Shown here piece by piece: positions 4,152-46,113 of a DNA stretch of 64,000 nucleotides (positions are counted from its first letter, which is position 1; every line of letters begins with the position of its first letter). This DNA is from an uncultured bacterium (GTDB taxonomy: Bacteria; Patescibacteriota; Doudnabacteria; UBA920): contig CAVVMJ010000003.1 in the NCBI GenBank assembly GCA_963749445.1, positions 128,715-192,714 on the forward strand. The letters run 5' to 3'. The translations under genes were made by a program, and so were the position numbers. Below the pieces are notes generated by a model, which was given only the letters and a program-made list of their open reading frames with translations, was not told where the DNA came from and did no database searches.

Positions 4152-4805
4152 ATGGATACTCTAAATATTTCCTTGCATGGAGCTAAGGAAAAAGAAGTTT
4201 TTGAATTTTTTAACCAAATCGTAAAAGAAACAACGATTGTATTTTTAAAAGATGTCTCTGGCGGGGACAGGATACCCCTTAGAATTCAAATGATTATAAC
4301 TTTTAGCTTAATAGACATTCTTGCAAGTTATTGGTTTGAATATTTAGAAAAGACAGGGACTCAACAAGAAAGATTTTGTTTATGGTATAAAACTTTCTGT
4401 AAAACCTATAGGAATAAAAAATATTTAAAAAATCAACAATGGAATATTCTCAGTAGTTCTCGTTTATATCAACTGAGAAACTCATTAGTCCATTTCTTTG
4501 GACTGTCTTCTAAAATAGAAAACATATACCTATCGCTAGTGCCAAATGATTTACCAGATAATGAAAAAAGTGATTTAGAAAAAAGATTGAACAACCATAA
4601 ATACAAAACCATAGTCATAAAGCCAAACGAATTTCACGAACTAGTCCGAGAAGGCGGCATACTTATGTTGGAGGACTGGCTAGAAAATGTAAGATTGGCA
4701 AACTCTGGAGACACTAATAAAAAAAATGCGCATATCAAGGGAATAAACAAAATATGGGAAAAAATACGATCTGAAGGTGCCTCAATAATTTTAAAAAAGA
4801 AATAA
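4152..4805 (+). CDS. AT-rich hypothetical protein with a HEPN-like Rx4H motif (possible Abi/toxin-like RNase).
   Basis: LYQLRNSLVHFFG contains R-N-x3-H. GC is about 30% against about 47% for the flanks. The start abuts the upstream PBP stop (TAA-T-ATG). Confidence 0.4.
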   Translation: MDTLNISLHGAKEKEVFEFFNQIVKETTIVFLKDVSGGDRIPLRIQMIITFSLIDILASYWFEYLEKTGTQQERFCLWYKTFCKTYRNKKYLKNQQWNILSSSRLYQLRNSLVHFFGLSSKIENIYLSLVPNDLPDNEKSDLEKRLNNHKYKTIVIKPNEFHELVREGGILMLEDWLENVRLANSGDTNKKNAHIKGINKIWEKIRSEGASIILKKK

Positions 4806-4808
4806 CCC

Positions 4809-4837
4809 AAAAGCTCAATCGGCACGGTTGAGCTTTT
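4809..4837. terminator. Bidirectional hairpin terminator between the convergent genes.
   Basis: aaaagctcaatcggcacggttgagctttt. Confidence 0.5.
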
Positions 4838-4862
4838 GAAAATACCTTAGTTATGGCTAAAT

Positions 4863-7800
4863 TTACTGCGTGATCGTAAATATCTCCCCGCGGGTGCGGC
4901 CGAAGTGGTCAGGTTGGTAGAGCTCACTGGCGACGGCCGGGAGGTGCTGGAACTGGCCGGGGATTAGCGCGCGGACATAGTAATCGTATTCGTAAACTCC
5001 GGGCTGTAAGTTTTGGTTAAAGAGCATTAAGCGGTCATCGTGGTATTCCACGGAATCCGGAATGAGCGAATCGGTAGTGGTCAAATTGCCGGAATAAACT
5101 TCGTCGGGCAAATCCGCCACGGCCGTGGTGCCGGGGACGGTTGAGCTTTGGCGGACGAACAAGCCTTTAATCCACAGCCACGAGCGCGTAAAGAATCCCG
5201 GGCGCTTAAGCTGCACGGTTTTGGTTGGCACATTTTGTCCGGCCTGTGCATTTTCATATCCGTACGCCGGAGTGGTCAAATACTGCTGGTTTAACGTTTG
5301 GTTTTCCGTGGCCAAATTAAAGTTCACCAATTCCATACCCGCCGGAATAAAACTTTCCACAGTCACAAAATTCCGCGGCTTGCTTACGGTTAAGGTTAAA
5401 TGGGCCCTTAGCACCTGTCCGACTTTGGCCTGATTAAGCGGCGTTTTATTCACGGTATCATCCAAAGCATAAAGTTCGCGCGAAATCGCAAAACCTTCGT
5501 CGCGCGGCGCAATACTGTTAACCGGCAAAAAATACTTTAGCGTCATATCGTAATAAAATCCATTGGTCTTGTCGTTGAGGTTCTGTTTATTAAACTGCAA
5601 AACGCTAAGTTTGTTTGGAGTAAATGACGAAATTGGAATAAAACTTTGCAGGGAATCCAAAATCGTTTGGCTGTTAAATGTAAAATTAGCTTGCGGCTTG
5701 GTATCCAGCAACAAGTTTAAGGTAAAGCTAGACTCGGTCTCCCCTTTCCACTGCAAGTAGTCAACCAGCGCGTCCATAACCGTAACCGTGCCGTCGGTTG
5801 ACCCCCACGAGCCGTCCTTGGCGCGGGAATTTTGCAGCCAGCGCAACATTTTGTCGGTTTCGCTGAATTGGCGCTGGGCTAAACTTTCGGCTTTGAGCAA
5901 CAAAGCCGTATCCTTAACCGGTGTTTCGTAATAATACCACAGTAAATTCTGATCCCCGGTGGTCAAATACGCGCCGCGGCCGTCCACCACCACGCGGTTT
6001 TCCAAAGTCTGGAAAACCTGGTTGCCAAACGTGCTGGATTGTTTTGCCGATGACAACAAAGCCAAATACACCAAAGACAAATTGGAAATATCCTCGTTAA
6101 AGAATTTTGGATCGTTGGCCAAAGCTTGAATTTGCGGCTGCAAAGCAGCGAATTGCTGGGAAGCGGATGGTACGCGGCTAAAAGTATAAGCCGTTAAAAT
6201 CAAACTGTCTTTGCTGCGGTTAAGGTTATAATCACCTGTCCAAGTTTGATAAGCGTAAGCCACAGCGCGGGTTTCGGCCGCGTCGTCAATTTTGTATTTG
6301 GCCTGGCGCAAGTCTTCCAGCGCGTTTAAAACATCCAAAGTCAAATAGTAATCGGACTTCATACCCGGATAATAGCTGAATCCCCCGTCCGAATTTTGGT
6401 TGGACATAATCCGGCTAAGGCCAATACTGACTACGTCGTCGGCCGAGTAAGTTTGGTTGTCAAACTGAACTTGGGGCATTTTAAATTTATCACCCAAGTT
6501 TTTTAAACTGACAAAGCGCTTAACCGTAGCCACGGCCGTAAGCTTGCTGATCATTTGCTCGGTGCAGCCATATGGATAATCCACCAAATATTTCAACGCC
6601 CCGGGCAAAACGCCGGCCAATGTGGCCTGGGCCTCTATTTGCACGCCGCCGCGGTCCGGGATAACATTGTCCGGCAGCCAGACGTATTCGTTGGCCGTTT
6701 GGTTAGTAGTATAGTTGGATGTAGCCACGGCTTCGTAAGTCTGGTCCGGCGTAACCGGAAAACTGCTGTCCACGCTGTCCTGGTACTTGTCATTTTTGGC
6801 CGTAATGTTCAAAGTATGCTGACCGTCCTGCTGCGATGCCGGCGCCACGGCTTTAACGTAAACCGTTTTGGTGTCCCCGGCGTTTAACGTTACGGTCTGC
6901 GGCTTGTTGTCCGGCATTTGGAGCGAGCTGCTGGTAAAGCTGACCTGAAGTGTCTGGGCGCTGCCGGTTTGGTTAAAAATTTTGCCGCCCAAAGCAAAGC
7001 TGTCGCCGGGAATGACAAAGCGCGGCACTAAAGGCGTGACCATCAATTCTTTTTGCGCCTTAAATTCCTTATATCCAACGCCTAATTTGGTATCTTGGGT
7101 GAGTCCCACGCCTTCGGCCTGCCAAGTGGTAAGGTTATCGGGCAAAGTAAAACTGACTTGGGCATGGCCGTCGCTGCCGGTTTGGACATCCGCGTTCCAG
7201 TAAGCCGTATCTTTAAACACCCCGCGTTTTTTGCTGGCCAAATCCTCGGGCGCGGCCCCGCCCCCGCCTTTGGTGCCGGTCGGAATTTCCGCCTCGGTCA
7301 AAATATTTTTGATGTTTGACGAAGTGGTCACACCCAGCGGCCGGCCGTCGTAAAAAAAGCTCACCGGATCTTTTTTGGGATTGCCCGAAAGTGCCAGCAC
7401 GCTCAAATCCGCCACAGCCAAGGAAACATCCGCGGGCACGGGCTTACCGGAAACATCTTTGGTGACGACATCCAAAGTCACCTGCTCGCCGGGTAAATAA
7501 TTATTTTTGTTGGGTGTTACGTCCACGGTCAGAGTTTTTTGTTTGGTGTCTATAAAGAACTGGGCCTGGCCGAATTTAACTTCCGGCTTGGGCGACAGCA
7601 GCAGTACCGTGACAAAAACATTGGGCACGTAAGCGTCCTTGACGTCAAAAGTATAATTATAAAAATTTTGGTTGATGTCTACGATTTGGTAATCCAAAAT
7701 CCGGCCGCGCTCTACCGCAATCAGAGCCTTGGCATGGTCATAAGGCGACTTGATGACTACCTGCCCGGCTTGGCCGACTTCCAGTTTGTTATTGGCCACG

Positions 7801-10800
7801 GCCAAATCCAAAGATTCGTTGTTTTCCGGCTGGACTTCCACGCTGCCCTGGCCGTAAACGTAAAAATCCTGCGTGGCGGTAATGGGATTGCCGCGGCTAT
7901 CGGCTGCCGTAAGCGCGACCTCATACTCGCCTTCCTGCCCGACCGTAAAATCCTTGGAAAAATTGCCGCTGCTGTCGGTCTGGGCCGTAAACTGCTGCAC
8001 CGTGTCTACCTGTTTTTCGGAATGATAGTAATAATTCCCGTCAACCTCCTGGCGCTTAAAATAGTTCCAGGTAATTTTGTTGACTTTGCCGCTAATATTG
8101 CCCACGGAAAGTTCTTTGCCCTGGGTATCCACGGTTTTGATTAAAATTTTATTGGCGTCATTTTTGCCAAAATAGCTCTTGTCCAAATTCACGCCCAAAT
8201 AAAACTGCCCGCGGTGCACAATGAAAGACTGCTCGTTGGACACAGCCTGTCCCGTGGTATTGGTTACGGTTACATCAACCACAAAAATTTTACTTTGATT
8301 TTGATTGTCTATGGAAAACAGTTTACTAAAATCCAAAACTTGGCTTATTTGCGCGTGACCCTGGGTATTTAACTGCGCTTTGCCGCGCAAAATAAAACTG
8401 TCGCCGTAGCCGGCATCGGGCTGGTAATACCAGCCGGCGCCGAACTGGAAATTTTGGTCCTGGTAGCGGTCAAAATAATAATCCTGGGCCGTGACCGTGT
8501 AATCCACGCTGCCGCCTTCCACGGGCACGCCAAAATAATAATTGGCGTCAACGCTTAGGTTGGCCGTATCGCCGGCAATGTATTCGGCCTTGTCGCTCTT
8601 TAAATCAACCTTAAACGGAGATGGCACGTAATCTTCCACGTCAAAAGTATAAATGCCGTCAAAAGCCTGGACGCGATAAGTGCCCAAGGGAGCATCCGCG
8701 GCCAAATGGAACACCGTGTTAAACGTACCGTTTTTACTGATGGCTAAATCCTCCGTGTCCACCTGTTCATTCTTGCTGCTAAAAATCTGCAGGGACGCGG
8801 TCTTGCCCGTATAAATTTCGTAAACGCCGTCGTAGCCAATGCGGTAAAGGCCCTTAATGTCCACTTCCTGGCCCGGACGATAAATCGGTCGGTCAGAATA
8901 AATGTAAGTTTTGTCCCCTCCCTGGTAAGGCGACGACCACTGAAATTTGTCGCTGTAGCCGGACACGATGGTGCTGTCATTGTCCTTGCCGATTACGGCC
9001 GCGCCGTTGCCGGCGTAAGCTTTGGCCCGGGCCACGCCGGAGCTGTCGGTGGTTGCGGTGTCAAACGCCAAATATTTTTTGTCCTGTTTTTGGAAGACTT
9101 GGATGGTGGCGCCCTCTACAGCGTTAAGTGAGCCGATTTGGGTTACCCAATACAAATTGCCCTGGGAAGATGACAACAACTCGCGCTCCGTGGCGCGTTC
9201 GGGCTGGACGGCGGCGGTTCCGGGAGAAGACGAAGTGTCGTCGCTGACTTCCACTTTCTTTTCCTGGGCAGCCAAATTGGTCACGTTCAAAAAAGTGCGC
9301 TCATAAATTGGCGGGCCGGGGCGGGTTTTGCCGGTGTTATAGTCGTAAATCTGCTGGCGCAGCTGCGGGTTGGAAAAACTTAAAACATAATAACCCAAAG
9401 GGCTGGGAACAATATCTGACAACTGCACCTGGAAATAATTCAACGTCCAGAATTTTGGCGGCAGGTCAATGCGCTTGGTCCAGGTCTGCTGGCAGTCCAG
9501 CGCGGAGCCGGCAATACCCGCATCCGGCTGGGTGTCGGGATCCAAATACCCGAGCATGGTTTGGCTGCTTACCTGGCAAACGTGCAAATCCAAATAATCC
9601 AAATTCGTGGCCGCGTAAGTGAGCTTGGTATGGCCGGGCGAAGTAACGTTGTAGCCCTTTTGCAGGGAATTAAAATCGGTGTAAGTGCTGTCAATTTTGC
9701 CGGAAGTAAAATTTAAATTTTGGCTCAAGCTTTGCCCAAACTGGTCAACTAAATTTAACTGCATCTGGTACTCTGTTTGCGGAATTAACCCGTAACGGAT
9801 CCGGTTGTCATACTGACCGGGCGAGCATTTTTCGTCAGCTGATCGTGAGCCAGTCTGCACCTTATAGGCCACATCCCAGTCCCATTTGCCCACGCTTAAA
9901 TTGGACTTGAGCCGCTGGTAAAAATTTTCCGGCTGGGCATCGTCCAGCGGAGAATTGGTGCAAATGATTAATCTGGTAACGTCTGCCGCCTGCTCACCCG
10001 GGGCAGGCGTGGTGCTTAACACCTTTAGCTGGGGGAAAATTTGCAGCGATTCCTTAATCGGGTCGGAGTTTAACTGCAGCCCTTTGGCATTAAAAATTTT
10101 TGTCAGCTCCACGTCAAAACTTTGTCCGGGCTGCCAGTTTTGATCTTTAAAACTTACCAGTAATTGCTTTTTATCGGTTACCTGCTTACATTGCCCGTCA
10201 ACATAAACCTCATTGCCGTCCGCGTCCAATTCACACCTTTGTCCGTAATCCACACGGTCCAAATTTTGCGCCGTAATTTGGGAACGGTCTTTGTCTATCT
10301 CCTCATAAAAATTCAAAACCAGCTGGCCTTTGGGGTCAAACATAGTGGGCTCGACCAAACTGGAACGGGAAGACGAAGCGCTTACTGACTCCACAATGTC
10401 GGGAACCTGCACCGCGGCGCTGCGGCCCTCGGACAAATTAATATCACCCTCCAGGGGAACGGCGCCGCTGATGTCTACCTGGTAATTGCTATTATTGTCC
10501 CAAAATTTGGCGCGGCCGAACTTGTCGGCTTTGGCAAAAATCAAAACCACGGATTTGTCGGTATAATCCGTTAAATTAACCGCCCCGCCCAAGCTCACGC
10601 CGCGGGTGCCATACTGGGTGACAAAGGGCACCGCATTGTTGGTCGCTAAATTTTTTACGGTAATCTGCGCGGTGGTTTTGGCCAAATCTACGGGTTGGTT
10701 AAAATCAATCTTAACCGGTTCGTCATATAATGTTACGCCATCGTGATGGATGGTATTTCCGGCAAACCGCAAGGGCCGCGTGGTAAACTGCGCCTGCGCC

Positions 10801-11525
10801 TGGGGCACAGGCAAGCCGTCCATAGATGTAAAACCGCTCTGTACCAAGACGGTATAATGGCTGGAGCGGGAAAGGCGCGCTGTTGGCGTAAACTCCAGCG
10901 TCCGCGTAGTCGCCCACTTAAATTTTCCGGCTGTTTCCGGAATGATTTTAACGGGCAGGGGCTTGGACTCCTGAACATCCAGCGTGCTTAGCGGCACCAT
11001 GGGCCGGTTAAATTCAATGGTAATGGCATCGGTCTCCGGCGCTTCTGAACCGTCTTTGGGAAAAATCGCGCTAACCTCCGGGTCAACATCGGCCTGGAAA
11101 TTTTGCGCCAAATGCACATCGCCGGCGGCCAAACTGACTTGGTAGTATTTGCCCGACTCCAGTTTGGCTGCCGGCTTAAAGACCAATTCAGTCGCCTTGC
11201 TGCCCACAGACCAGGTTCCTAAAAGTTTTGGGTCAAAACTAATTGCATCCTTGGCCTGATCCGAAGTCAAGCTGACTCCGGGTGGTAAATTAATTACTAC
11301 TGCCGCGCTTTGGGAAATTTTGGCCGCCACCAAGCCCACCGGCTCATCCTGCCATTTGGGCTGAATACTTTTAACATAAAAATAATTATACCCCAGCCAT
11401 CCGGCCGCTGCCACAATTAACACAGCGGCCGTCAACATAACGCCGCGCCTGTGGTGTCGCTTTAGCTGCTGTTTGTCTATTTCTGTCTCCTGAACGGGTT
11501 TTGCCGGAGCATTGGTTTCGTCCAT
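4863..11525 (-). CDS. Bacterial alpha-2-macroglobulin family protein (2220 aa, N-terminal membrane anchor).
   Basis: Thioester motif YPYGCTEQ; N-terminal TM after a basic stretch; very long run of MG-like beta-rich sequence. Confidence 0.8.
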   Translation of the reverse strand: MDETNAPAKPVQETEIDKQQLKRHHRRGVMLTAAVLIVAAAGWLGYNYFYVKSIQPKWQDEPVGLVAAKISQSAAVVINLPPGVSLTSDQAKDAISFDPKLLGTWSVGSKATELVFKPAAKLESGKYYQVSLAAGDVHLAQNFQADVDPEVSAIFPKDGSEAPETDAITIEFNRPMVPLSTLDVQESKPLPVKIIPETAGKFKWATTRTLEFTPTARLSRSSHYTVLVQSGFTSMDGLPVPQAQAQFTTRPLRFAGNTIHHDGVTLYDEPVKIDFNQPVDLAKTTAQITVKNLATNNAVPFVTQYGTRGVSLGGAVNLTDYTDKSVVLIFAKADKFGRAKFWDNNSNYQVDISGAVPLEGDINLSEGRSAAVQVPDIVESVSASSSRSSLVEPTMFDPKGQLVLNFYEEIDKDRSQITAQNLDRVDYGQRCELDADGNEVYVDGQCKQVTDKKQLLVSFKDQNWQPGQSFDVELTKIFNAKGLQLNSDPIKESLQIFPQLKVLSTTPAPGEQAADVTRLIICTNSPLDDAQPENFYQRLKSNLSVGKWDWDVAYKVQTGSRSADEKCSPGQYDNRIRYGLIPQTEYQMQLNLVDQFGQSLSQNLNFTSGKIDSTYTDFNSLQKGYNVTSPGHTKLTYAATNLDYLDLHVCQVSSQTMLGYLDPDTQPDAGIAGSALDCQQTWTKRIDLPPKFWTLNYFQVQLSDIVPSPLGYYVLSFSNPQLRQQIYDYNTGKTRPGPPIYERTFLNVTNLAAQEKKVEVSDDTSSSPGTAAVQPERATERELLSSSQGNLYWVTQIGSLNAVEGATIQVFQKQDKKYLAFDTATTDSSGVARAKAYAGNGAAVIGKDNDSTIVSGYSDKFQWSSPYQGGDKTYIYSDRPIYRPGQEVDIKGLYRIGYDGVYEIYTGKTASLQIFSSKNEQVDTEDLAISKNGTFNTVFHLAADAPLGTYRVQAFDGIYTFDVEDYVPSPFKVDLKSDKAEYIAGDTANLSVDANYYFGVPVEGGSVDYTVTAQDYYFDRYQDQNFQFGAGWYYQPDAGYGDSFILRGKAQLNTQGHAQISQVLDFSKLFSIDNQNQSKIFVVDVTVTNTTGQAVSNEQSFIVHRGQFYLGVNLDKSYFGKNDANKILIKTVDTQGKELSVGNISGKVNKITWNYFKRQEVDGNYYYHSEKQVDTVQQFTAQTDSSGNFSKDFTVGQEGEYEVALTAADSRGNPITATQDFYVYGQGSVEVQPENNESLDLAVANNKLEVGQAGQVVIKSPYDHAKALIAVERGRILDYQIVDINQNFYNYTFDVKDAYVPNVFVTVLLLSPKPEVKFGQAQFFIDTKQKTLTVDVTPNKNNYLPGEQVTLDVVTKDVSGKPVPADVSLAVADLSVLALSGNPKKDPVSFFYDGRPLGVTTSSNIKNILTEAEIPTGTKGGGGAAPEDLASKKRGVFKDTAYWNADVQTGSDGHAQVSFTLPDNLTTWQAEGVGLTQDTKLGVGYKEFKAQKELMVTPLVPRFVIPGDSFALGGKIFNQTGSAQTLQVSFTSSSLQMPDNKPQTVTLNAGDTKTVYVKAVAPASQQDGQHTLNITAKNDKYQDSVDSSFPVTPDQTYEAVATSNYTTNQTANEYVWLPDNVIPDRGGVQIEAQATLAGVLPGALKYLVDYPYGCTEQMISKLTAVATVKRFVSLKNLGDKFKMPQVQFDNQTYSADDVVSIGLSRIMSNQNSDGGFSYYPGMKSDYYLTLDVLNALEDLRQAKYKIDDAAETRAVAYAYQTWTGDYNLNRSKDSLILTAYTFSRVPSASQQFAALQPQIQALANDPKFFNEDISNLSLVYLALLSSAKQSSTFGNQVFQTLENRVVVDGRGAYLTTGDQNLLWYYYETPVKDTALLLKAESLAQRQFSETDKMLRWLQNSRAKDGSWGSTDGTVTVMDALVDYLQWKGETESSFTLNLLLDTKPQANFTFNSQTILDSLQSFIPISSFTPNKLSVLQFNKQNLNDKTNGFYYDMTLKYFLPVNSIAPRDEGFAISRELYALDDTVNKTPLNQAKVGQVLRAHLTLTVSKPRNFVTVESFIPAGMELVNFNLATENQTLNQQYLTTPAYGYENAQAGQNVPTKTVQLKRPGFFTRSWLWIKGLFVRQSSTVPGTTAVADLPDEVYSGNLTTTDSLIPDSVEYHDDRLMLFNQNLQPGVYEYDYYVRALIPGQFQHLPAVASELYQPDHFGRTRGEIFTITQ

Positions 11526-13001: not shown

Positions 13002-13029
13002 AATTATCAGCCCGAACCTTGCACACAAC

Positions 13030-13057
13030 AAAACTCTCCGCCTTGGCGGAGAGTTTT
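13030..13057. terminator. Bidirectional terminator hairpin.
   Basis: aaaactctccgccttggcggagagtttt, lying between convergent genes. Confidence 0.55.
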
Positions 13058-13111
13058 GTTCCTGTTATTATTTTTTGGCTAATCTTAAAATAATAATTTT
13101 TTCAATAAATA

Positions 13112-37052: not shown

Positions 37053-37766
37053 ATGTGGCTGCTTACTATTTATCATAATTTCCTTTATCTCCCCCTGCTG
37101 AACCTGCTGGTGTTTTTTTATAACATCATTCCCGGCCATGATATTGGCATAGTGATTATTGTGCTGACAATTGTCATTCGTTTGGCACTGGCCCCGAGCT
37201 TCCATAAATCACTCAAAAGCCAAAAGGCCATGAATGACTTGCAGCCCAAGTTGAACGAATTGCGGAAAAAGCACAAAGAAGATAAGGAAGCCTTGGCTAA
37301 AGCCACTATGGGCCTTTACCGCGAGCACAAAATTAATCCTTTGTCTTCCTGTTTGCCGATTTTAATCCAGTTGCCGATTTTAATCGCGCTGTACCAGGTT
37401 TTCCGTTTGGCGCTCGGCGGGCACGATTTGATGGGGCTTTATTCGTTTGTCAAAAACCCCGGGTTTATTAGCCCAAAGCTGCTCGGTTTGGTGGATCTGT
37501 CCAAGCCCAGTTACGTGTTCGCAATTTTGGCCGGCGCGGCGCAATTTTGGCAGTCAAAATTAATGATGCCCAAGGCCAACTCCGGCCAGGACGCGACAAT
37601 GCGCGCCATGTCCGTGCAGACCACTTATGTTTTGCCCTTTATTAGCGTGATAATCGCCTGGCGTCTGCCTGCGGGCCTGCCGCTTTACTGGATTGTAACT
37701 ACGCTGTTTGCTGTGGGGCAGCAGTATTATATTCTGCGCAAACAGAATCCGACAGCGGCCCAGTAG
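37053..37766 (+). CDS. yidC: Membrane protein insertase YidC (short form).
   Basis: Multi-TM; the conserved YWIVTTLFAVGQQYYI region; lies in the rnpA-yidD-yidC-jag cluster. Confidence 0.8.
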   Translation: MWLLTIYHNFLYLPLLNLLVFFYNIIPGHDIGIVIIVLTIVIRLALAPSFHKSLKSQKAMNDLQPKLNELRKKHKEDKEALAKATMGLYREHKINPLSSCLPILIQLPILIALYQVFRLALGGHDLMGLYSFVKNPGFISPKLLGLVDLSKPSYVFAILAGAAQFWQSKLMMPKANSGQDATMRAMSVQTTYVLPFISVIIAWRLPAGLPLYWIVTTLFAVGQQYYILRKQNPTAAQ

Positions 37767-37835
37767 TGGGTAGTTGGTAGGAGGTAGCCAGCAGTTTGGC
37801 TACCCGCTACTTACTACTAACTACCAGCTAATTTT

Positions 37836-38315
37836 ATGACCGACTACGACAAAATCGAACAGGTAAAAAAAATCATTATTGGGGTGTTGGAAAAAATGGG
37901 GATAGCGGCGGAGGTGGAATTTGAAGAAAGTATTACCAAAGGGCTGATTTTTAACATTTCCTGCCGCGATGCTTTTATGCTCATTGGCCGCGAAGGTTCT
38001 ACCCTGCACGCACTGCAGGTTTTGGTCCAGTCCATTGCCGCGCGCCGGTTTCTTAAAGAGCCCGATGGGCGGATGATGTGGTTTACTTTAGATGTTGACG
38101 ATTACAAAAGAAAGCGTGAATGGTACTTAAAGGAAACGGCCAAGGCGGCTGTTGACCACATAAAAAAAACCGGCCGTGCCGTAAGCCTTGATCCCATGCC
38201 CAATTACGAACGCCGGCTCATCCACGCCTACCTCCAGGAACACTGCCCCGAAGCCGAAAGCTCTTCCATTGGCAACGAACCGTATCGGAAAGTCGTGATA
38301 AGGCTAAAGAGATAA
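37836..38315 (+). CDS. jag: Jag/KhpB-like KH + R3H RNA-binding protein.
   Basis: C-terminal R3H motif ERRLIHAYLQEH; position after yidC. Confidence 0.7.
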   Translation: MTDYDKIEQVKKIIIGVLEKMGIAAEVEFEESITKGLIFNISCRDAFMLIGREGSTLHALQVLVQSIAARRFLKEPDGRMMWFTLDVDDYKRKREWYLKETAKAAVDHIKKTGRAVSLDPMPNYERRLIHAYLQEHCPEAESSSIGNEPYRKVVIRLKR

Positions 38316-38385
38316 ATTCCAAGTTTTAAAAACACCCGAGAGGGTATTTTTTGTAGCGTGCCGATTTATCGGCTGGGCGATGGTT

Positions 38386-39189
38386 TTATTTCAGCCGCTC
38401 TGCTTGTTGCCAGGCGAGTTCAAAAACAATCTTTAAGGAATTAGCAAAGGAGGGATTTTTGATTTCAAAAGCCATCTTTTCCCCGGGCTTAACCAGCACG
38501 CCCATCACAACGTCGTCGTAAATATTCACTTCCGCGGCTGGCGTAAACGGGAATTGTTTTTCCAGCCAGCGGTATTCTGTGCATTTTTGGTAGAGCGGAC
38601 TGTTTTTATAAGTGGTTTCATAAAAATACAAACCGGCTTCATTTTTCATAACCAAAGCTTTTTCTTTTATTCCAAGTTTCGCACGTTCTTTGACGTAGTC
38701 TTTACCAAATTTGTCATAAGCTGATTTTTCTTTTCCGGGCAAGTAAACATTCAAATCCAAAACTGAATAAATTATACTTTTGGATTCCAGCGTGTGCCAA
38801 TAAATATTTTTTATTCCGTCCCAGCCTTCAAAAAATTTAATGACCGGTTTGTTTTCTTTTTTGTATAGTCCTTGAAGATCGGGCAATAACTCTCCAACAT
38901 CCGCCAGGCGCTTTTCCGCCTGGTGTTTCTTATTTTCTAAGTATTGTTTTAACCTGAACGGCGCCTCGGCCACGTATATGGTTTTTTTAGTGCCGAGAGT
39001 TGTGCGGCTGGCTAAGCCGTAAAGCGACAAGCGTTCCAAAATATCATAGCCGGTTGTGCGGTTAAGCGTAGCCGCTTTGCTAATATCACTCACCGTTCCC
39101 TGCCCCAACTCCAACAGCGCCAAATAAACTTTGGTTTCGTTTGGATGTAACCCCAAACTTTGCAGTTGTTCGGCGATTTTGCAATCCAT
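38386..39189 (-). CDS. TrmB-family transcriptional regulator (wHTH + C-terminal domain).
   Basis: KVYLALLELGQGTVSDISKAATLNRTTGYDILERL wHTH. Flanked on both sides by gccgatttatcggc hairpins (38352-38368 and 39258-39275). Confidence 0.55.
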   Translation of the reverse strand: MDCKIAEQLQSLGLHPNETKVYLALLELGQGTVSDISKAATLNRTTGYDILERLSLYGLASRTTLGTKKTIYVAEAPFRLKQYLENKKHQAEKRLADVGELLPDLQGLYKKENKPVIKFFEGWDGIKNIYWHTLESKSIIYSVLDLNVYLPGKEKSAYDKFGKDYVKERAKLGIKEKALVMKNEAGLYFYETTYKNSPLYQKCTEYRWLEKQFPFTPAAEVNIYDDVVMGVLVKPGEKMAFEIKNPSFANSLKIVFELAWQQAERLK

Positions 39190-39456
39190 ATGGGAGAACA
39201 GATAAACACGGATGTAGCGTGCCCATTTATGGGCGGACGATGGATGTGTTTAGTGTAGTTAGCCGATTTATCGGCTGTTATTTGTGTCAAGTCATCCCGA
39301 CAAAATTTGAAAAGTTAAATATAAAAGCCAGAAATAAGCCTAAATACATTATATCATAAGTGGAGCCAAATTGTCAATATGTGATTATTATGGTATATTT
39401 CCCCGTTAAAACAAAAATCCTAAAACGGCACTTTTTGTTTCAACAAGGAGGAGTTC

Positions 39457-39906
39457 ATGAAAAACGTGAAAGTGGTTTTGTTTTGTGAGAGCTCTCAAGG
39501 ATTTGAGGATCTTTTGTGGGGTGACCGTGGATGCCTTCGCGCGGACTACCAACGCCTGTCGGGTGTCGAAGTAGAAGCCCGGGGATTTGGGGGAAATCTG
39601 GTAGATACCAATGGCAAACCCAATGAGAACGGGAAAGCTTTTTTGGAGGCCTGCAAAACTGCGGACGTGCTCGTCACGGACGCTTGGACTGGCACATCGA
39701 TGTACACGAATACCGAGGAACCCTTAGCCAGGATGGCTGAGATGGTGTGGAGAGCGAAAAAGCTCAATCCCCGGCTGGTGGTGTTCGGCGACTTGCTTGA
39801 AGGCGAGCACGAGACAATTCTCCACCAGATGTACGGCGCAACACCGATCAGGCACTGGCGGGACAAGAAGATCATCGAAGCGGTCAAAAAGGCCGCTCTC
39901 ACGTAG
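39457..39906 (+). CDS. Hypothetical Rossmann-like protein in a foreign-looking cassette (possibly nucleoside 2-deoxyribosyltransferase/SLOG-like fold).
   Basis: Strong SD AAGGAGGAG; GC about 55%; alternating beta/alpha pattern VKVVLFCES...ADVLVTDAWTGT...RLVVFGD. Confidence 0.3.
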   Translation: MKNVKVVLFCESSQGFEDLLWGDRGCLRADYQRLSGVEVEARGFGGNLVDTNGKPNENGKAFLEACKTADVLVTDAWTGTSMYTNTEEPLARMAEMVWRAKKLNPRLVVFGDLLEGEHETILHQMYGATPIRHWRDKKIIEAVKKAALT

Positions 39907-40032
39907 TACTTGGCAGGACTAGTGTGTATTTACAATGCATTCGCGCTGCCTTTTTGAGGCTTTGATGAAAATCGAGGCTTCAAAATCGGAAAACACCCGG
40001 CGGGGCGTGAATACGCAAAATTAGGAGGTAAC

Positions 40033-40446
40033 ATGGAAGACGTTGGCACGGTTGGGAGCTGGAACGATGTATCTAAGGCCGCGCAGACGCTCATGCGCAG
40101 GGGCTATATACAGGGAGTGGCAATTGTGTCACTTCAAAAGTTCGGTGAGGGAGAATACGATGCCGTGCGAATTGATGGCAACGGCGCAGGCTATGACGAT
40201 GGCACGCTCGACAAGGTCATGCGGGAAATCCCACAAAAGTTTCCGGATGCCGTGAGTTTCCGGCTCTTCATCGAACGCATGAAGGCGTACGGATCAGGAG
40301 AACCTTGGTATGAGACATTGACGGTAGTTTGCGTGGCCGCAAAGCAGGCGCTTGATACCATTCAGCCGCGAGGACTTCTGCATAAGTCACTGAGGATTAC
40401 ACAGTTTTCGGCGGTCATCGGTTCGTGCGGGTATCTGGGCGATTGA
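40033..40446 (+). CDS. Hypothetical protein, the second gene of the GC-rich cassette.
   Basis: SD TAGGAGGT 5 nt upstream; no recognisable motifs. Confidence 0.3.
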   Translation: MEDVGTVGSWNDVSKAAQTLMRRGYIQGVAIVSLQKFGEGEYDAVRIDGNGAGYDDGTLDKVMREIPQKFPDAVSFRLFIERMKAYGSGEPWYETLTVVCVAAKQALDTIQPRGLLHKSLRITQFSAVIGSCGYLGD

Positions 40447-40490
40447 CATCGGCGATGGCGTGTGCCATCATTCAACGGACCAAATGATAA

Positions 40491-40533
40491 AGGGCGGATA
40501 ACGAAGCATTCGTTCCGCCCCTTTTTATAAAAA
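40491..40533 (+). terminator. Rho-independent terminator.
   Basis: gggcggataacgaagcattcgttccgccc followed by a T5 and an A6 run. Confidence 0.7.
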
Positions 40534-40541
40534 ATTATTTT

Positions 40542-40577
40542 GTCTAACATCATTTCCGGCCGGAAATGATGTTAGAC
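40542..40577. promoter_or_regulatory. Perfect 36-bp palindrome.
   Basis: gtctaacatcatttccgg|ccggaaatgatgttagac. Confidence 0.6.
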
Positions 40578-40581
40578 AAGG

Positions 40582-41847
40582 CTAAATTGCTAGAGAAAGT
40601 ATAATCCAAAATACCATGGCCAAGTCGTTTTTAAAGTAGGGGTTGTCTACTTGGCCTTGGACTAATACTGCGATGAGGAAGAGGGCGATGGATAAGGCAA
40701 TTGTGCGGTTAAAATCTCCAACTACCCCGTCTCGCTTCGCAATCCACCCCTCCTTGGCAGGAGGGGAAGCTCCGCGAAGACCGCGGTAAAGGTAGAGTCC
40801 GATTAGCCCGATTAAACTTATTAGCCCGATTAGTCCGGTTTCCACCCAGAGGTCTAGGAAAATGTTGTGCGGGAAGTTGTGGGTGTCGGTGAGGCCGGGG
40901 TCGGTGTTAAGGGTTGTCCACTGGCGTGAAAAGCCGGTTAAGCCGAGTCCAAAAATCGGCGATTCTTTAACGCCTTTTATGCCGGTATCCCAAAGGGAAA
41001 AGCGGGAGACCGCGGACTTCTCACCGTAAAAAGGCAGGACAAAGCGCCAGCGGAGGTTGGGGATGCAAACGATAACGATAACCATAATGATAACGCCGGC
41101 AAAAATTATTTTGCGGATTTTTTTGTCCGCGGCAAATATCAGGTAAACCAAAACCGCGGCGCCAAGGCCGGCCCAGCCGGCGCGGGAGAGCGATAATAGT
41201 AATCCGGTAGCGCCGATTATCCAAGCAAACATCTTTATCCAATTTTTCCACCCCTCCCTAACCCTCCCCATCAAGGGGAGGGAAAAAGAAGAAAAAATAT
41301 CCGGAATCAAGAAGGCTAAAAGTGGGGCGCACCAGAGGGCGTAAAAGTTCGGGTGGATGAAGAAGCTTAAGGCGCGCTTGGGCTCGTTGCTGTTGCCCCA
41401 CCAAGCTGTCGGCAATCCGATTAATGTAAAGTACTGGAGAATTGCGTAGAGGCCGGTGACTGCGAGGAGAAAGTAAGTAGTTAGTAGTAAGTAGTTAGTA
41501 GCCCGCGGGTATTGCTTGATAATAAATCGGCCGATAAAAAATATAGAAACCGGCTGCAAAAATAACACAATAAACTGGCCGAGTTTGGCGCGGTCAAAGC
41601 CATGGACAAACAAGGAAATTATCCCGGACAGGAAAAACAGACCAACCAAAACCAGGATTTTTTTATCCAAACCCATCAGCGATTGCCAAAATTCCCGTAG
41701 TTGATGTTTGGCCAAAATCCACCCTAAAAAAATCACCCACACTAAAACTACCCACACCATTAAAACGTCTGGGGGAAAGCCAAAAACGTTAAATTTAATA
41801 ACGTAGGTCGGCGTTAGCAGTAAAGTTAGGGCAAGAAGATAAGGCAT
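40582..41847 (-). CDS. O-antigen ligase-like (Wzy_C/WaaL family) polytopic membrane protein. Carries in-frame GC-rich hairpin inserts.
   Basis: LLLSLSRAGWAGLGAAVLV (Wzy_C motif). Hairpins cccctccttggcaggagggg (40773-40815) and ccctccccatcaaggggaggg (41250-41285) fall within loops. Confidence 0.6.
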   Translation of the reverse strand: MPYLLALTLLLTPTYVIKFNVFGFPPDVLMVWVVLVWVIFLGWILAKHQLREFWQSLMGLDKKILVLVGLFFLSGIISLFVHGFDRAKLGQFIVLFLQPVSIFFIGRFIIKQYPRATNYLLLTTYFLLAVTGLYAILQYFTLIGLPTAWWGNSNEPKRALSFFIHPNFYALWCAPLLAFLIPDIFSSFSLPLMGRVREGWKNWIKMFAWIIGATGLLLSLSRAGWAGLGAAVLVYLIFAADKKIRKIIFAGVIIMVIVIVCIPNLRWRFVLPFYGEKSAVSRFSLWDTGIKGVKESPIFGLGLTGFSRQWTTLNTDPGLTDTHNFPHNIFLDLWVETGLIGLISLIGLIGLYLYRGLRGASPPAKEGWIAKRDGVVGDFNRTIALSIALFLIAVLVQGQVDNPYFKNDLAMVFWIILSLAI

Positions 41848-44869: not shown

Positions 44870-46036
44870 ATGGATAAAATAGAAGAAATCTTAAGGGGTG
44901 CGGGAGAGATCTTTACCAGGGCGGAGTTGGAAGATGTTTTGGCATCCAAAAAAAAGTTGAGGATTTATTACGGGGTTGACCCTTCGGGTGCGGTTATTCA
45001 TTTGGGCCACGCGGTAATTTTAAGCAAACTGCAAATTCTCCAGCAGCTTGGCCACAAAATTATTTTTTTAATTGGCGATTTTACAGGCATGATTGGTGAT
45101 CCAACTGATCGCGCCTCAGTGCGCCAGCCTCTTACCCGCGAACAGGTTTTGGAGAACGCTAAGACCTACAAAAAACAAGTGTCTAAATTTTTGGATTTTA
45201 CGGGAAAAAATTCGGCGGAAATCAGGCTCAACAGCGAGTGGAATAACAAATTATCTTTTAAAGATATTATTAAACTGTCCGGCAAGTTCACGGTGCAACA
45301 GTTTTTGGAGCGCGATATGTTTGAAAAAAGGATGGCCGAAGGCAAGCCCATTGGGATGCATGAATTTTTATACCCGCTTATCCAGGGCAATGACGCGGTT
45401 GAACTTGACGCGGACATGCAGGTCGGCGGCACGGACCAGACCTTCAACATGCTACAGGGAAGATATTTGATGAAGGCTCTGAAAAATAGGACGCAAATGG
45501 TGATAACTTACCAATTGCTGGTTGGTACTGACGGTAGGAAAATGTCCAAGAGTTACAATAATGACATTGCCATTGGCGCGGAGCCGAACGATATGTTTGG
45601 TAAGGTTATGTCTGTTAATGATGATTTGATAAAACAGTATTTTATTTTGGCTACGAGCGTTCCTTTGGAGAAAGTGGATGAAATTTTGAAATTGCCTAAT
45701 CCCCGCGACCAAAAGTTAAGGCTGGCCGAAGAAATTGTGGCGCTATACCATGGTATAGCGGCCGCGGAAAAGGCCAAGGAGTCTTTTATCAGTCAGTTTA
45801 GCAAAGGCGAGCTACCTGCTGATATTGAAATTAAGCCTTCGGGAGCCGTAAAAGTTTCTGACGCGCTGGTTGAGTTAGGTTTAGCTGCCAGCAAGTCGGA
45901 AGCGCGTCGGTTAATTGAACAGGGCGGAATTGATTACGATGGAAAACGCCTTACAGAAGACGTTGATTTGGAATCTGATGGCGAGCCGAAACTTTTACGC
46001 AGAGGCAGGAATTTCGTAAAGATCAAAAAGAAATAA
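44870..46036 (+). CDS. tyrS: Tyrosyl-tRNA synthetase.
   Basis: HLGH (HIGH) and KMSKS motifs; C-terminal S4-like domain. Confidence 0.9.
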   Translation: MDKIEEILRGAGEIFTRAELEDVLASKKKLRIYYGVDPSGAVIHLGHAVILSKLQILQQLGHKIIFLIGDFTGMIGDPTDRASVRQPLTREQVLENAKTYKKQVSKFLDFTGKNSAEIRLNSEWNNKLSFKDIIKLSGKFTVQQFLERDMFEKRMAEGKPIGMHEFLYPLIQGNDAVELDADMQVGGTDQTFNMLQGRYLMKALKNRTQMVITYQLLVGTDGRKMSKSYNNDIAIGAEPNDMFGKVMSVNDDLIKQYFILATSVPLEKVDEILKLPNPRDQKLRLAEEIVALYHGIAAAEKAKESFISQFSKGELPADIEIKPSGAVKVSDALVELGLAASKSEARRLIEQGGIDYDGKRLTEDVDLESDGEPKLLRRGRNFVKIKKK

Positions 46037-46040
46037 ATCA

Positions 46041-46066
46041 AAACCCCTCCACTCGGAGGGGTTTTA
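46041..46066. terminator. Bidirectional terminator hairpin.
   Basis: aaaacccctccactcggaggggtttt. Confidence 0.6.
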
Positions 46067-46113
46067 AATTCAGCGTAAGATCAGCGTTGCAATCAGCGAC
46101 CTATCAGCGGTTT

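Follow-up and report, generated by a model that had tools for sequence, protein, structure and literature searches.

A candidate TrmB-controlled operon in a variable gene slot of a Candidatus Doudnabacteria genome, and the undescribed protein family of its first gene

Introduction

Members of the candidate phyla radiation (CPR, or Patescibacteria) have small genomes with many unannotated genes, and the regulation of transcription in them is little known. In a stretch of 64,000 nucleotides of contig CAVVMJ010000003.1 (hereafter the window), two small genes, which we call A and B, lie between a divergently transcribed gene for a TrmB-family regulator and a convergent gene for a Wzy_C-type membrane protein. 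The original prediction for this locus saw in them a two-gene accessory module of foreign origin, possibly serving defence or toxin immunity, located next to the regulator. The question is therefore whether genes A and B are chance neighbours of the TrmB gene or belong with it. On balance we favour the latter: that they form a divergent TrmB-controlled operon within a replacement slot, and that the product of the first gene, A, works together with the regulator. We found no literature pairing TrmB with Patescibacteria or the candidate phyla radiation. The elements on which the argument turns are:

38386–39189, minus strand: TrmB-family regulator, 267 amino acids (aa), divergent from the A–B unit (Pfam PF01978, E = 5e-14, 52.3 bits against a cut-off of 25.6)
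39457–39906, plus strand: gene A, stand-alone member of an undescribed flavodoxin-like (beta-alpha)5 domain family
40033–40446, plus strand: gene B, lineage-restricted orphan of 137 aa, a predicted cytosolic alpha+beta protein
40582–41847, minus strand: Wzy_C/O-antigen-ligase-like membrane protein, the conserved right border of the slot (Pfam PF04932, E = 3e-20; syntenic in all relatives)

Results

The gene A family and its association with TrmB

In a word-indexed search of 5.8 billion proteins gene A matched only itself, and a rerun with the family profile gave two proteins only. The impression of a singleton was overturned by an exhaustive phmmer search of 1.84 billion representatives, which returned 31 proteins at E ≤ 1e-3 (30 of them remote relatives) and 14 at E ≤ 1e-10. 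Relatives are 26–42% identical to gene A over the whole length, with 13 other representatives matching at E = 3e-22 to 1e-10 across residues 1–147, and the family profile recovers the gene A open reading frame (ORF) of the window at E = 4e-49 (hmmsearch). Five positions are invariant in the family alignment (K5, G46, F62, D75 and H123) and four nearly so (V7, F44, A69 and W77); Cys10 and Glu115 are mostly conserved, Cys10 not being invariant. The consensus motifs are KVVLxC, FGG, DADVVxxDAW and LMEG..VAVH, and gene A carries all signature residues and motifs, with LLEG in place of LMEG. No family in Pfam, NCBIfam, PHROG or PADLOC covers this domain, the only Pfam and NCBIfam matches to gene A at E ≤ 1 being OTCace and GroES noise, and a scan of viral contigs with a profile of the two-domain relatives (A7) found nothing.

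Many of the relatives are proteins of around 290 aa in which the A-like domain is N-terminal and a receiver-like domain follows. We considered whether these could be fusions of A and B (149 + 137 aa) and rejected this, as their second half is receiver-like and shows no match to gene B (−2 bits for gene B against the hidden Markov model (HMM) of the receiver-like partner; hhalign probability 0.2%). Seven two-domain proteins were scanned: in five, the first half of the C-terminal domain has a sub-threshold match to Pfam Response_reg (E = 3e-6 to 6e-3), and in two there is none. The domain is marked by the motifs ILVVDD, TDLMMP and VVSDTNHHDHP. Stand-alone forms of the A-domain are about 150 aa long and, since in locus L059 one of them is followed by a separate receiver-like gene (E = 1e-27), the two domains occur both fused and split. 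The receiver-like domain (ILVVDD, TDLMMP, DTNHHxHP, KDW) also makes up a family of considerable size by itself, seen in metagenome loci L018–L057, where it mostly occurs without the A-domain and is often divergent from a TrmB-family gene. P0012, another stand-alone member of the gene A family, lacks a receiver-like partner as gene A does; in the three near-identical contigs that carry it (L060–L062) it lies two genes upstream of an rve-family transposase, so at least some members of the family occur in mobile contexts.

The regulator gene is the only TrmB-like ORF in the window and has orthologues of 69–88% identity in five Doudnabacteria species, as found by a scan of GTDB species genomes. 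A divergent TrmB-family gene stands directly upstream of a gene-A-family or receiver-like gene in the window and also in L020, in the contig of P0008 and in L063/L064; counted over all loci with enough upstream DNA, about 10 of some 24 A or receiver-like loci have a divergent TrmB gene ending 63–229 bp upstream. The window TrmB aligns over its full length with the A-adjacent TrmB of L063 (32% identity, E = 1e-31), and gene A shows a similar degree of divergence from P0006 of L063/L064 (38–42% identity). Given this recurrence in unrelated contigs and the comparable divergence of the two genes, adjacency by chance appears very unlikely, and the position of gene A beside TrmB is probably functional.

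A replacement slot between TrmB and Wzy_C

Comparison of seven lineages indicates that the interval between TrmB and Wzy_C is a hypervariable replacement slot of 1.0–1.7 kb holding one to three genes. The flanks are the same throughout and the divergent promoter and leader are conserved, and the cargo differs, ranging over orphans, membrane proteins and DUF433/DUF5615 toxin–antitoxin pairs. None of A, B, p188 and p88 (the last two introduced below) was found by tblastn (1e-3) in five species-level Doudnabacteria relatives, each of which keeps a TrmB–Wzy_C interval of 1.0–1.7 kb filled with other genes; the earlier view of the locus as accessory and variable is thus borne out.

The same cannot be said for the pairing of A with B. 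In metagenome contigs L003–L012 (from JGI, ENA and Logan) the flanks are exactly as in the window and gene B is present (90.5% aa identity), and in the place of gene A stand a membrane-like protein of 166 or 188 aa (p166/p188) and an 88-aa ORF (p88) that are unrelated to it. A search for co-occurrence of the pair in other genomes thus turned up B without A, against the proposal of a single A–B cassette; nor do the two look like partners, since the gene A family is usually paired with the receiver-like domain, which gene B does not encode. The remaining slots hold:

L013: two orphans
L014, L015 and L016: a membrane protein, weakly UbiA-like
L016, in addition: a 171-aa ORF, reverse complement 7560–8075, weakly similar to nucleoside 2-deoxyribosyltransferases (NDT; Pfam PF15891, E = 0.011)
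L015 and L017 (reverse complement): DUF433 + DUF5615 (PIN-like) toxin–antitoxin pairs, on opposite strands in the two species

The slot therefore does accept mobile-type cargo, as the pairs in L015 and L017 show. The NDT-like ORF of L016 was considered as possible kin of gene A and dismissed, there being no similarity between them (BLASTP E = 11). In L014 (reverse complement, ~4577–5284) the UbiA-like gene of L015 and L016 seems to be frameshifted into 41 aa and 165 aa, which is either a pseudogene or a sequencing error in this metagenome-assembled genome.

Between the window and L003, homology ends just past ATGAAAAA of the first gene and restarts 84 nt upstream of gene B, which places the swap boundaries at the ATG of the first gene and at the latter point. 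In L014, L015 and L017 the promoter leads straight into the leader that here precedes gene B (leader 2, AAAACACCCGGCGGGG ... AGGAGG), and in L013 this leader stands ahead of another gene. Because leader 2 directly follows the promoter in those three loci, the first-gene block of the window, L003 and L013 looks as if it had been inserted into the leader. On this comparison the slot appears to behave as two sub-slots, the cargo of each being replaced between conserved non-coding borders.

The regulatory region

An intergenic region of about 135 bp aligns in all seven lineages, and it holds the signals through which the slot could be read and controlled. Together with the leaders and a set of small repeats around TrmB, these are:

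39285–39302, no strand assigned: inverted repeat TGTC-N10-GACA, invariant in the seven-lineage alignment; candidate TrmB operator
39348–39399, both strands: predicted divergent sigma-70-like promoters sharing a palindromic −35 box, ATTGTCAAT (39370–39378)
−35 at 39377–39372 and −10 at 39353–39348, minus strand: P_trmB (consensus scan)
−35 at 39371–39376 and −10 at 39394–39399, plus strand: P_slot (consensus scan)
39406–39456, plus strand: leader 1, with a near-invariant start GTTAAAAC and the Shine–Dalgarno sequence (SD) AAGGAGGAG at 39445–39453; common with L003 up to ATGAAAAA
39907–40032, plus strand: A–B spacer, with a degenerate terminator remnant (GGCAG...CTGCC TTTTT), a 15-bp hairpin and leader 2
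39990–40005, plus strand: AAAACACCCGGCGGGG of leader 2, whose SD (AGGAGG) is at 40023–40028
38352–38374, no strand assigned: TGTAG-hairpin repeat, copy 1, at the 3' end of TrmB
39213–39235 and 39254–39276, no strand assigned: TGTAG-hairpin repeat, copies 2 and 3, in the 5' untranslated region of TrmB

The two promoters match the consensus at 12 of 12 and 10 of 12 positions, and both hexamer pairs are kept in the seven lineages. As they share a −35 box, binding of RNA polymerase in the two directions may be mutually exclusive. Both genes have the strong SDs that had been ascribed to them. Leader 1 has a weak hairpin (free energy, dG, −13.6; z −2.1), and the A–B spacer folds more stably (dG −43.2, z −3.5). 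No internal promoter for gene B was found in the spacer, where the promoter scan gave no plus-strand site and no consistent −35/−10 pair could be seen by eye.

The terminator that precedes leader 2 is degenerate in the window (39913–39985) and clear in L003 (~9890–9957) and L013 (reverse complement, ~11290–11356). Its T-run can alternatively pair with a downstream A-run, giving stems of 15 bp in the window, about 7 bp in L003 and 11 bp in L013. As the three lineages retain this pairing while the sequence changes, it may represent an attenuator-like element upstream of the second sub-slot.

The description of the TrmB gene as bracketed by identical hairpins also proved correct, with GCCGATTTATCGGC at 38360 and 39262 and a variant at 39221. 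The TGTAG-NNN-hairpin motif GCCNNTTTATNNGGC has three matches in 64 kb, against 0.05 expected, and all of them flank TrmB. L003 retains the TGTAG hairpins, one of them with a changed stem sequence, and because the hairpins persist while that stem differs, a structural role (as an RNA or DNA hairpin) is suggested over a sequence-specific one.

Gene B and recent exchange of its segment

Gene B has no match in Pfam, NCBIfam, PADLOC or PHROG and no relatives in the roughly 50 retrieved loci, and its AlphaFold2 model is poor (predicted local distance difference test score, pLDDT, 55.8), with no usable fold match. Its history is clearer. Between the window and L003 the gene is 91% identical in nucleotides and 90.5% in protein, compared with 68% for the yidC, jag, Wzy_C and PBP1 proteins and 79% for TrmB; its leader is 88% identical, and other intergenic DNA about 32%. 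The synonymous divergence (dS, by the method of Nei and Gojobori) of gene B is 0.25, against 1.17–1.49 or saturation in the flanks. The segment with this recent common history is:

39949–40526, plus strand: ~580 bp recently common with the L003 lineage (blastn, 87% nucleotide identity overall, 91% in gene B; flanking genes ~70–72%)

Since dS is 0.25 here and at least 1.17 in the flanks, the comparison indicates that this segment was exchanged between two Doudnabacteria lineages long after their divergence. The ratio of non-synonymous to synonymous divergence (dN/dS) of 0.21, from 18 synonymous and 13 non-synonymous codon differences, argues that gene B is genuine and kept by purifying selection, and three variants of it preserve the length.

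The predicted fold of gene A

A single-sequence AlphaFold2 model of gene A (pLDDT 76.6; predicted template-modelling score, pTM, 0.77) has five beta-alpha units in a flavodoxin-like (beta-alpha)5 fold, in agreement with the Rossmann-like alternation that had been read from the sequence. The model would place C10, D75 and E115 at the C-terminal ends of beta1, beta3 and beta4 or immediately behind them. Foldseek searches of PDB and BFVD gave weak and mixed matches with template-modelling (TM) scores of about 0.5 and a single viral match at 0.60, among them TIR domains, NDT, lumazine synthase, RCK, pyridoxal kinase, SGNH hydrolases, glutaminase domains and response regulators.

The proposed likeness to NDT and SLOG folds turned out, on structure prediction and Foldseek comparison, to be one of generic fold only (TM ≤ 0.53). 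The NDT structures 8qc0 and 8pqt (TMq 0.40–0.41) rank 17–22 among heterogeneous matches, viral NDT-like proteins reach TMq 0.45–0.49, and neither PF05014 nor PF15891 matches gene A in Pfam. The RRS1/RPS4 TIR domains (TMq 0.46–0.53, E ~2e-3 to 3e-3) are level with unrelated folds, and there is no TIR HMM match. The idea of gene A as a diverged receiver domain found no statistical support: its hhalign probability against the fused receiver-like domain is 2.4%, and PF00072 matches neither gene A nor its stand-alone homologues. A Cys replaces the acidic pair that follows beta1, and Asp75 at the end of beta3 is invariant. Membership of the OTCase family (PF00185) was set aside, the resemblance being confined to a 30-residue motif (E = 0.017, 15.6 bits against a cut-off of 29.4; PDB profile E = 0.19), a local likeness to the OTCase substrate-binding loop.

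Terminators, the palindrome and Wzy_C

The A–B unit and the convergent Wzy_C gene appear to be closed by a back-to-back pair of terminators:

40492–40528, plus strand: predicted intrinsic terminator of gene B, hairpin 40492–40520 plus T-run (RNA dG −18.4 kcal/mol, z −3.3)
40540–40579, minus strand: 40-bp perfect palindrome, predicted terminator hairpin of Wzy_C (18-bp stem, 4-nt loop, dG −27.1, z −8.1)

The first is the strong terminator that had been noted downstream of gene B; L003 has at this position a hairpin of different sequence with a T-run (dG −24.8). The second had been described as a perfect palindrome of 36 bp, with an operator or an integration site suggested for testing. It is perfect and in fact longer, at 40 bp, and it is the longest palindrome in the window and occurs there once. 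It begins 2 nt past the Wzy_C stop codon, is followed by AAAATAATTTTTT on the minus strand and was flagged as a minus-strand terminator; its hairpin is AT-rich and the T-run begins 7 nt after the stem. Relatives have other hairpins at this position: a stem of 12+3 bp in L003, one of 12 bp in L015 and, in L014, a perfect palindrome of 32 bp whose centre, CGGCCG, is that of the window palindrome. Because position and structure are conserved and the sequence is free to vary across relatives, we take the palindrome to be a predicted intrinsic terminator of Wzy_C, and its uniqueness in the window and lack of sequence conservation led us to reject a repeated element, an operator or an attachment (att) site. 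A search of Rfam over 38200–40800 gave only a sub-threshold miRNA match, on the palindrome.

Further perfect or near-perfect palindromes with A-run and T-run flanks lie at 13027–13060 and 46035–46070 (AACAAAACTCTCCGCC/GGCGGAGAGTTTTGTT and AAATCAAAACCCCTCC/GGAGGGGTTTTAAATT). Both resemble bidirectional terminators, suggesting that this terminator style is common in the genome.

Within Wzy_C itself, the window protein differs from that of L003 by two in-frame insertions, of about 21 aa (~40700–40765) and about 9 aa (~41248–41290), on the minus strand. Both coincide with GC-rich, hairpin-like DNA that starts with CCACCCCTCC and contains GGAGGGG, and in the window CCACCCCTCC is found just at these two sites. 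They may represent small palindromic insertions that loops of the protein can accommodate.

Genomic setting, assembly and composition

The gene order in the window is rpmH, rnpA, yidD, yidC, jag, TrmB (minus), gene A, gene B, Wzy_C (minus) and PBP1 (minus), and related contigs continue the synteny, at one end to dnaA, dnaN and recF and at the other to TyrRS and RuvC. Judging by this synteny and by the Doudnabacteria and Patescibacteria matches of TrmB, the window is an origin-proximal housekeeping block of a Candidatus Doudnabacteria (CPR) genome. Logan contig L002, which was assembled independently, matches 37541–40569 (jag, TrmB, A and B) with 100% identity and terminates inside the 40-bp palindrome; this identity rules out an assembly chimera.

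Both ORFs are present as had been described, at 39457–39906 (149 aa) and 40033–40446 (137 aa). Their GC content had been put at about 55% and contrasted with that of their neighbours. They are among the GC-richest genes, ranking third (A, 53.8%) and second (B, 54.1%) among 43 long-ORF gene proxies in a window of 47.3%; the excess is mild, however (z = 1.4–1.5 only), the neighbouring PBP1 gene reaches 52.9% and one further window gene 54.5%, and the contrast is chiefly with the AT-rich TrmB gene and intergenic DNA. GC content at third codon positions (GC3; 0.647 for A and 0.594 for B) is inside the host range. Given the mild z-scores, the host-range GC3 and the GC-rich PBP1 gene, composition alone is no mark of foreign origin. 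The recent-transfer signature of gene B (dS 0.25) does agree with the original prediction.

Discussion

In the reading that we favour, the slot cargo would be transcribed from the conserved promoter that diverges from the TrmB promoter and has its −35 box in common with it. TrmB would control this promoter, and A and B would be co-transcribed as a unit closed by the strong terminator. TrmB and gene A would make up a regulator–partner module in which A serves as a signalling or ligand-handling accessory protein, its conserved Cys10, Asp75, Trp77, Glu115 and His123 sitting, in the model, at or close behind the ends of beta1, beta3 and beta4, the positions that hold the active sites of CheY-like and flavodoxin-like proteins. 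The form seen here would be a minimal one, without the receiver-like partner, and gene B would be an unrelated orphan in the second sub-slot behind its own conserved leader. The biochemical role of gene A is much less certain than its partnership with the regulator.

A number of points weigh against this reading. The operator assigned to TrmB, like a common transcript for A and B, is a prediction from sequence, neither gene has a sequence-based functional assignment, and the similarity between the A-domain and the receiver is not significant, as the hhalign probability of 2.4% indicates. The receiver-like (DTNHHxHP) partner was not found in the window or in the related Doudnabacteria loci. For gene B, which forms a single 90% cluster in the word-indexed search of 5.8 billion proteins, an exhaustive search was not made. 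Three of the seven informative contexts of the gene A family (L019, L058 and L060–62) are without TrmB. Finally, gene A is missing from six other Doudnabacteria lineages that keep the orthologous TrmB, so TrmB does not depend on A there, and A could have come in recently as cargo. Its history may be that of an ancestral partner of TrmB, lost or replaced in the six other lineages, or that of cargo which arrived later and was kept because of its work with TrmB.

An alternative that we take seriously, though we judge it unlikely, treats the locus as a recombination hot spot: A and B would be lineage-specific cargo, unrelated to one another and with no functional tie to TrmB, and the TrmB adjacency seen elsewhere would reflect similar hot spots beside TrmB genes. 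The six lineages that keep TrmB with wholly different cargo fit this well, as do the three TrmB-less contexts; parsimony favours a single gain of gene A, and swap boundaries at conserved non-coding flanks are what homologous recombination around foreign cargo would leave. Such hot spots do not readily account for a divergent TrmB gene within 63–229 bp in about 10 independent, highly diverged loci, nor for the 32% (TrmB) and 38–42% (A) identities between the window and L063, which are as expected for a co-inherited pair. It is improbable, in our estimation, that gene A is instead a small-molecule enzyme, a hydrolase or transferase using Cys10, His123 and Asp75/Glu115, which TrmB controls in response to a sugar with B as a passenger. 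In its favour, sugar metabolism is what TrmB regulators usually control, the family keeps D75 and H123 invariant and Cys10 and Glu115 mostly conserved, and the fold weakly resembles those of SGNH hydrolases, glutaminase domains and pyridoxal kinase, besides the motif resembling the OTCase substrate-binding loop. Against this, no enzyme family gives a significant match, Cys10 is not invariant and the usual fusion partner is a receiver-like signalling domain.

The defence or toxin-immunity cassette of foreign origin, beside TrmB by chance, has become very improbable. It could draw on the variability of the slot and the DUF433/DUF5615 pairs in L015 and L017, on the GC-rich composition of A and B and the recent exchange of gene B, and on the TIR and NDT structures among the weak fold matches of gene A. 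Those fold matches are generic and heterogeneous, however, GC3 is host-like, A and B are separable (with B found without A in L003–L012), and the gene A family is tied to TrmB and to receiver-like domains in housekeeping contexts. Nor did the databases lend it support: A, B and the gene A family have no significant match in PADLOC, PHROG, Pfam or NCBIfam that would speak for defence or toxin immunity, PADLOC giving nothing for A or B at E ≤ 1 and, for ten other family members, one weak match on the receiver-like part (E = 6e-3), and the viral-contig scan with profile A7 was empty. A type II toxin–antitoxin pair was rejected for want of toxin or antitoxin domain matches and of co-inheritance. 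Least probable of all is that one or both ORFs are spurious or decaying. Although gene A is confined to one Doudnabacteria lineage and the model of gene B is of low confidence, gene A retains all family-invariant residues and folds confidently, gene B has a dN/dS of 0.21 and an intact length in three variants, and both have strong SDs.

If the favoured reading, a TrmB-controlled operon whose first product works with the regulator, is extended to the family as a whole, CPR TrmB regulators might be paired with a two-part module of A-domain and DTNHHxHP receiver-like domain, fused or split, that senses a ligand or phosphoryl signal and controls the regulator. The window would then hold a receiver-less version in a leader-embedded slot, with cargo swapped by recombination at conserved leader and terminator sequences. 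We put this forward tentatively, as a possibility that we would sooner expect to fail than to hold.

What is new is that gene A appears, from its sequence relatives, to define an undescribed domain family linked in CPR bacteria to TrmB regulators and atypical receiver-like domains. An apparent singleton ORF thereby becomes a member of a defined, unnamed family with a recurrent genomic partner, and a testable hypothesis of a CPR-specific signalling module follows. The locus also documents a very compact replacement slot, in which promoter, leaders and terminators are conserved and the cargo is interchangeable, with gene B as direct evidence of recent exchange between divergent Doudnabacteria. 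A false lead has been removed as well, in that a defence system lacks evidence and the striking palindrome would be an ordinary terminator.

Several known systems help to place these features. Like the intrinsic terminators of other convergent genes, the two hairpins follow the stop codons and each has a T-run on its own strand; the Wzy_C hairpin differs in being unusually long, perfect and AT-rich, with its T-run 7 nt past the stem. With NDT, SLOG and TIR proteins gene A shares a three-layer alpha/beta/alpha fold, and NDT and TIR structures are among its weak Foldseek matches (TM 0.41–0.53), but lumazine synthase, RCK, pyridoxal kinase and SGNH hydrolases rank at least as high. The likeness to CheY-like receivers (PF00072) lies in the (beta-alpha)5 fold, in an invariant Asp at the end of beta3 within DVVxxDAWxHP, which resembles DxxxxDxxMP, and in the usual fusion of the gene A domain to a receiver-like domain. 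Unlike these receivers, gene A has no significant HMM or profile similarity and a Cys stands for the acidic pair after beta1; the partner domain is itself atypical, as only its first half matches PF00072 and it carries DTNHHxHP.

Replacement-type flexible genomic islands have conserved flanks and alternative cargo, as at O-antigen loci. The slot resembles them in its identical flanking genes, conserved non-coding borders, unrelated cargo and the recent exchange of one segment, and differs in being tiny (1.0–1.7 kb), in apparently lying inside the leader of a regulator-controlled operon and in its two independently swapping sub-slots. In Thermococcus and Pyrococcus the divergently transcribed target of TrmB is a trehalose/maltose ABC-transporter operon. 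The arrangement in the window is similar, with a PF01978 winged-helix regulator beside a divergent operon and a conserved palindromic site between them. Here the operator is a predicted one and the putative targets are a flavodoxin-like protein and an orphan, rather than sugar transporters or glycolytic enzymes, and the cargo of the slot is replaced between species whilst the regulator and promoter stay.

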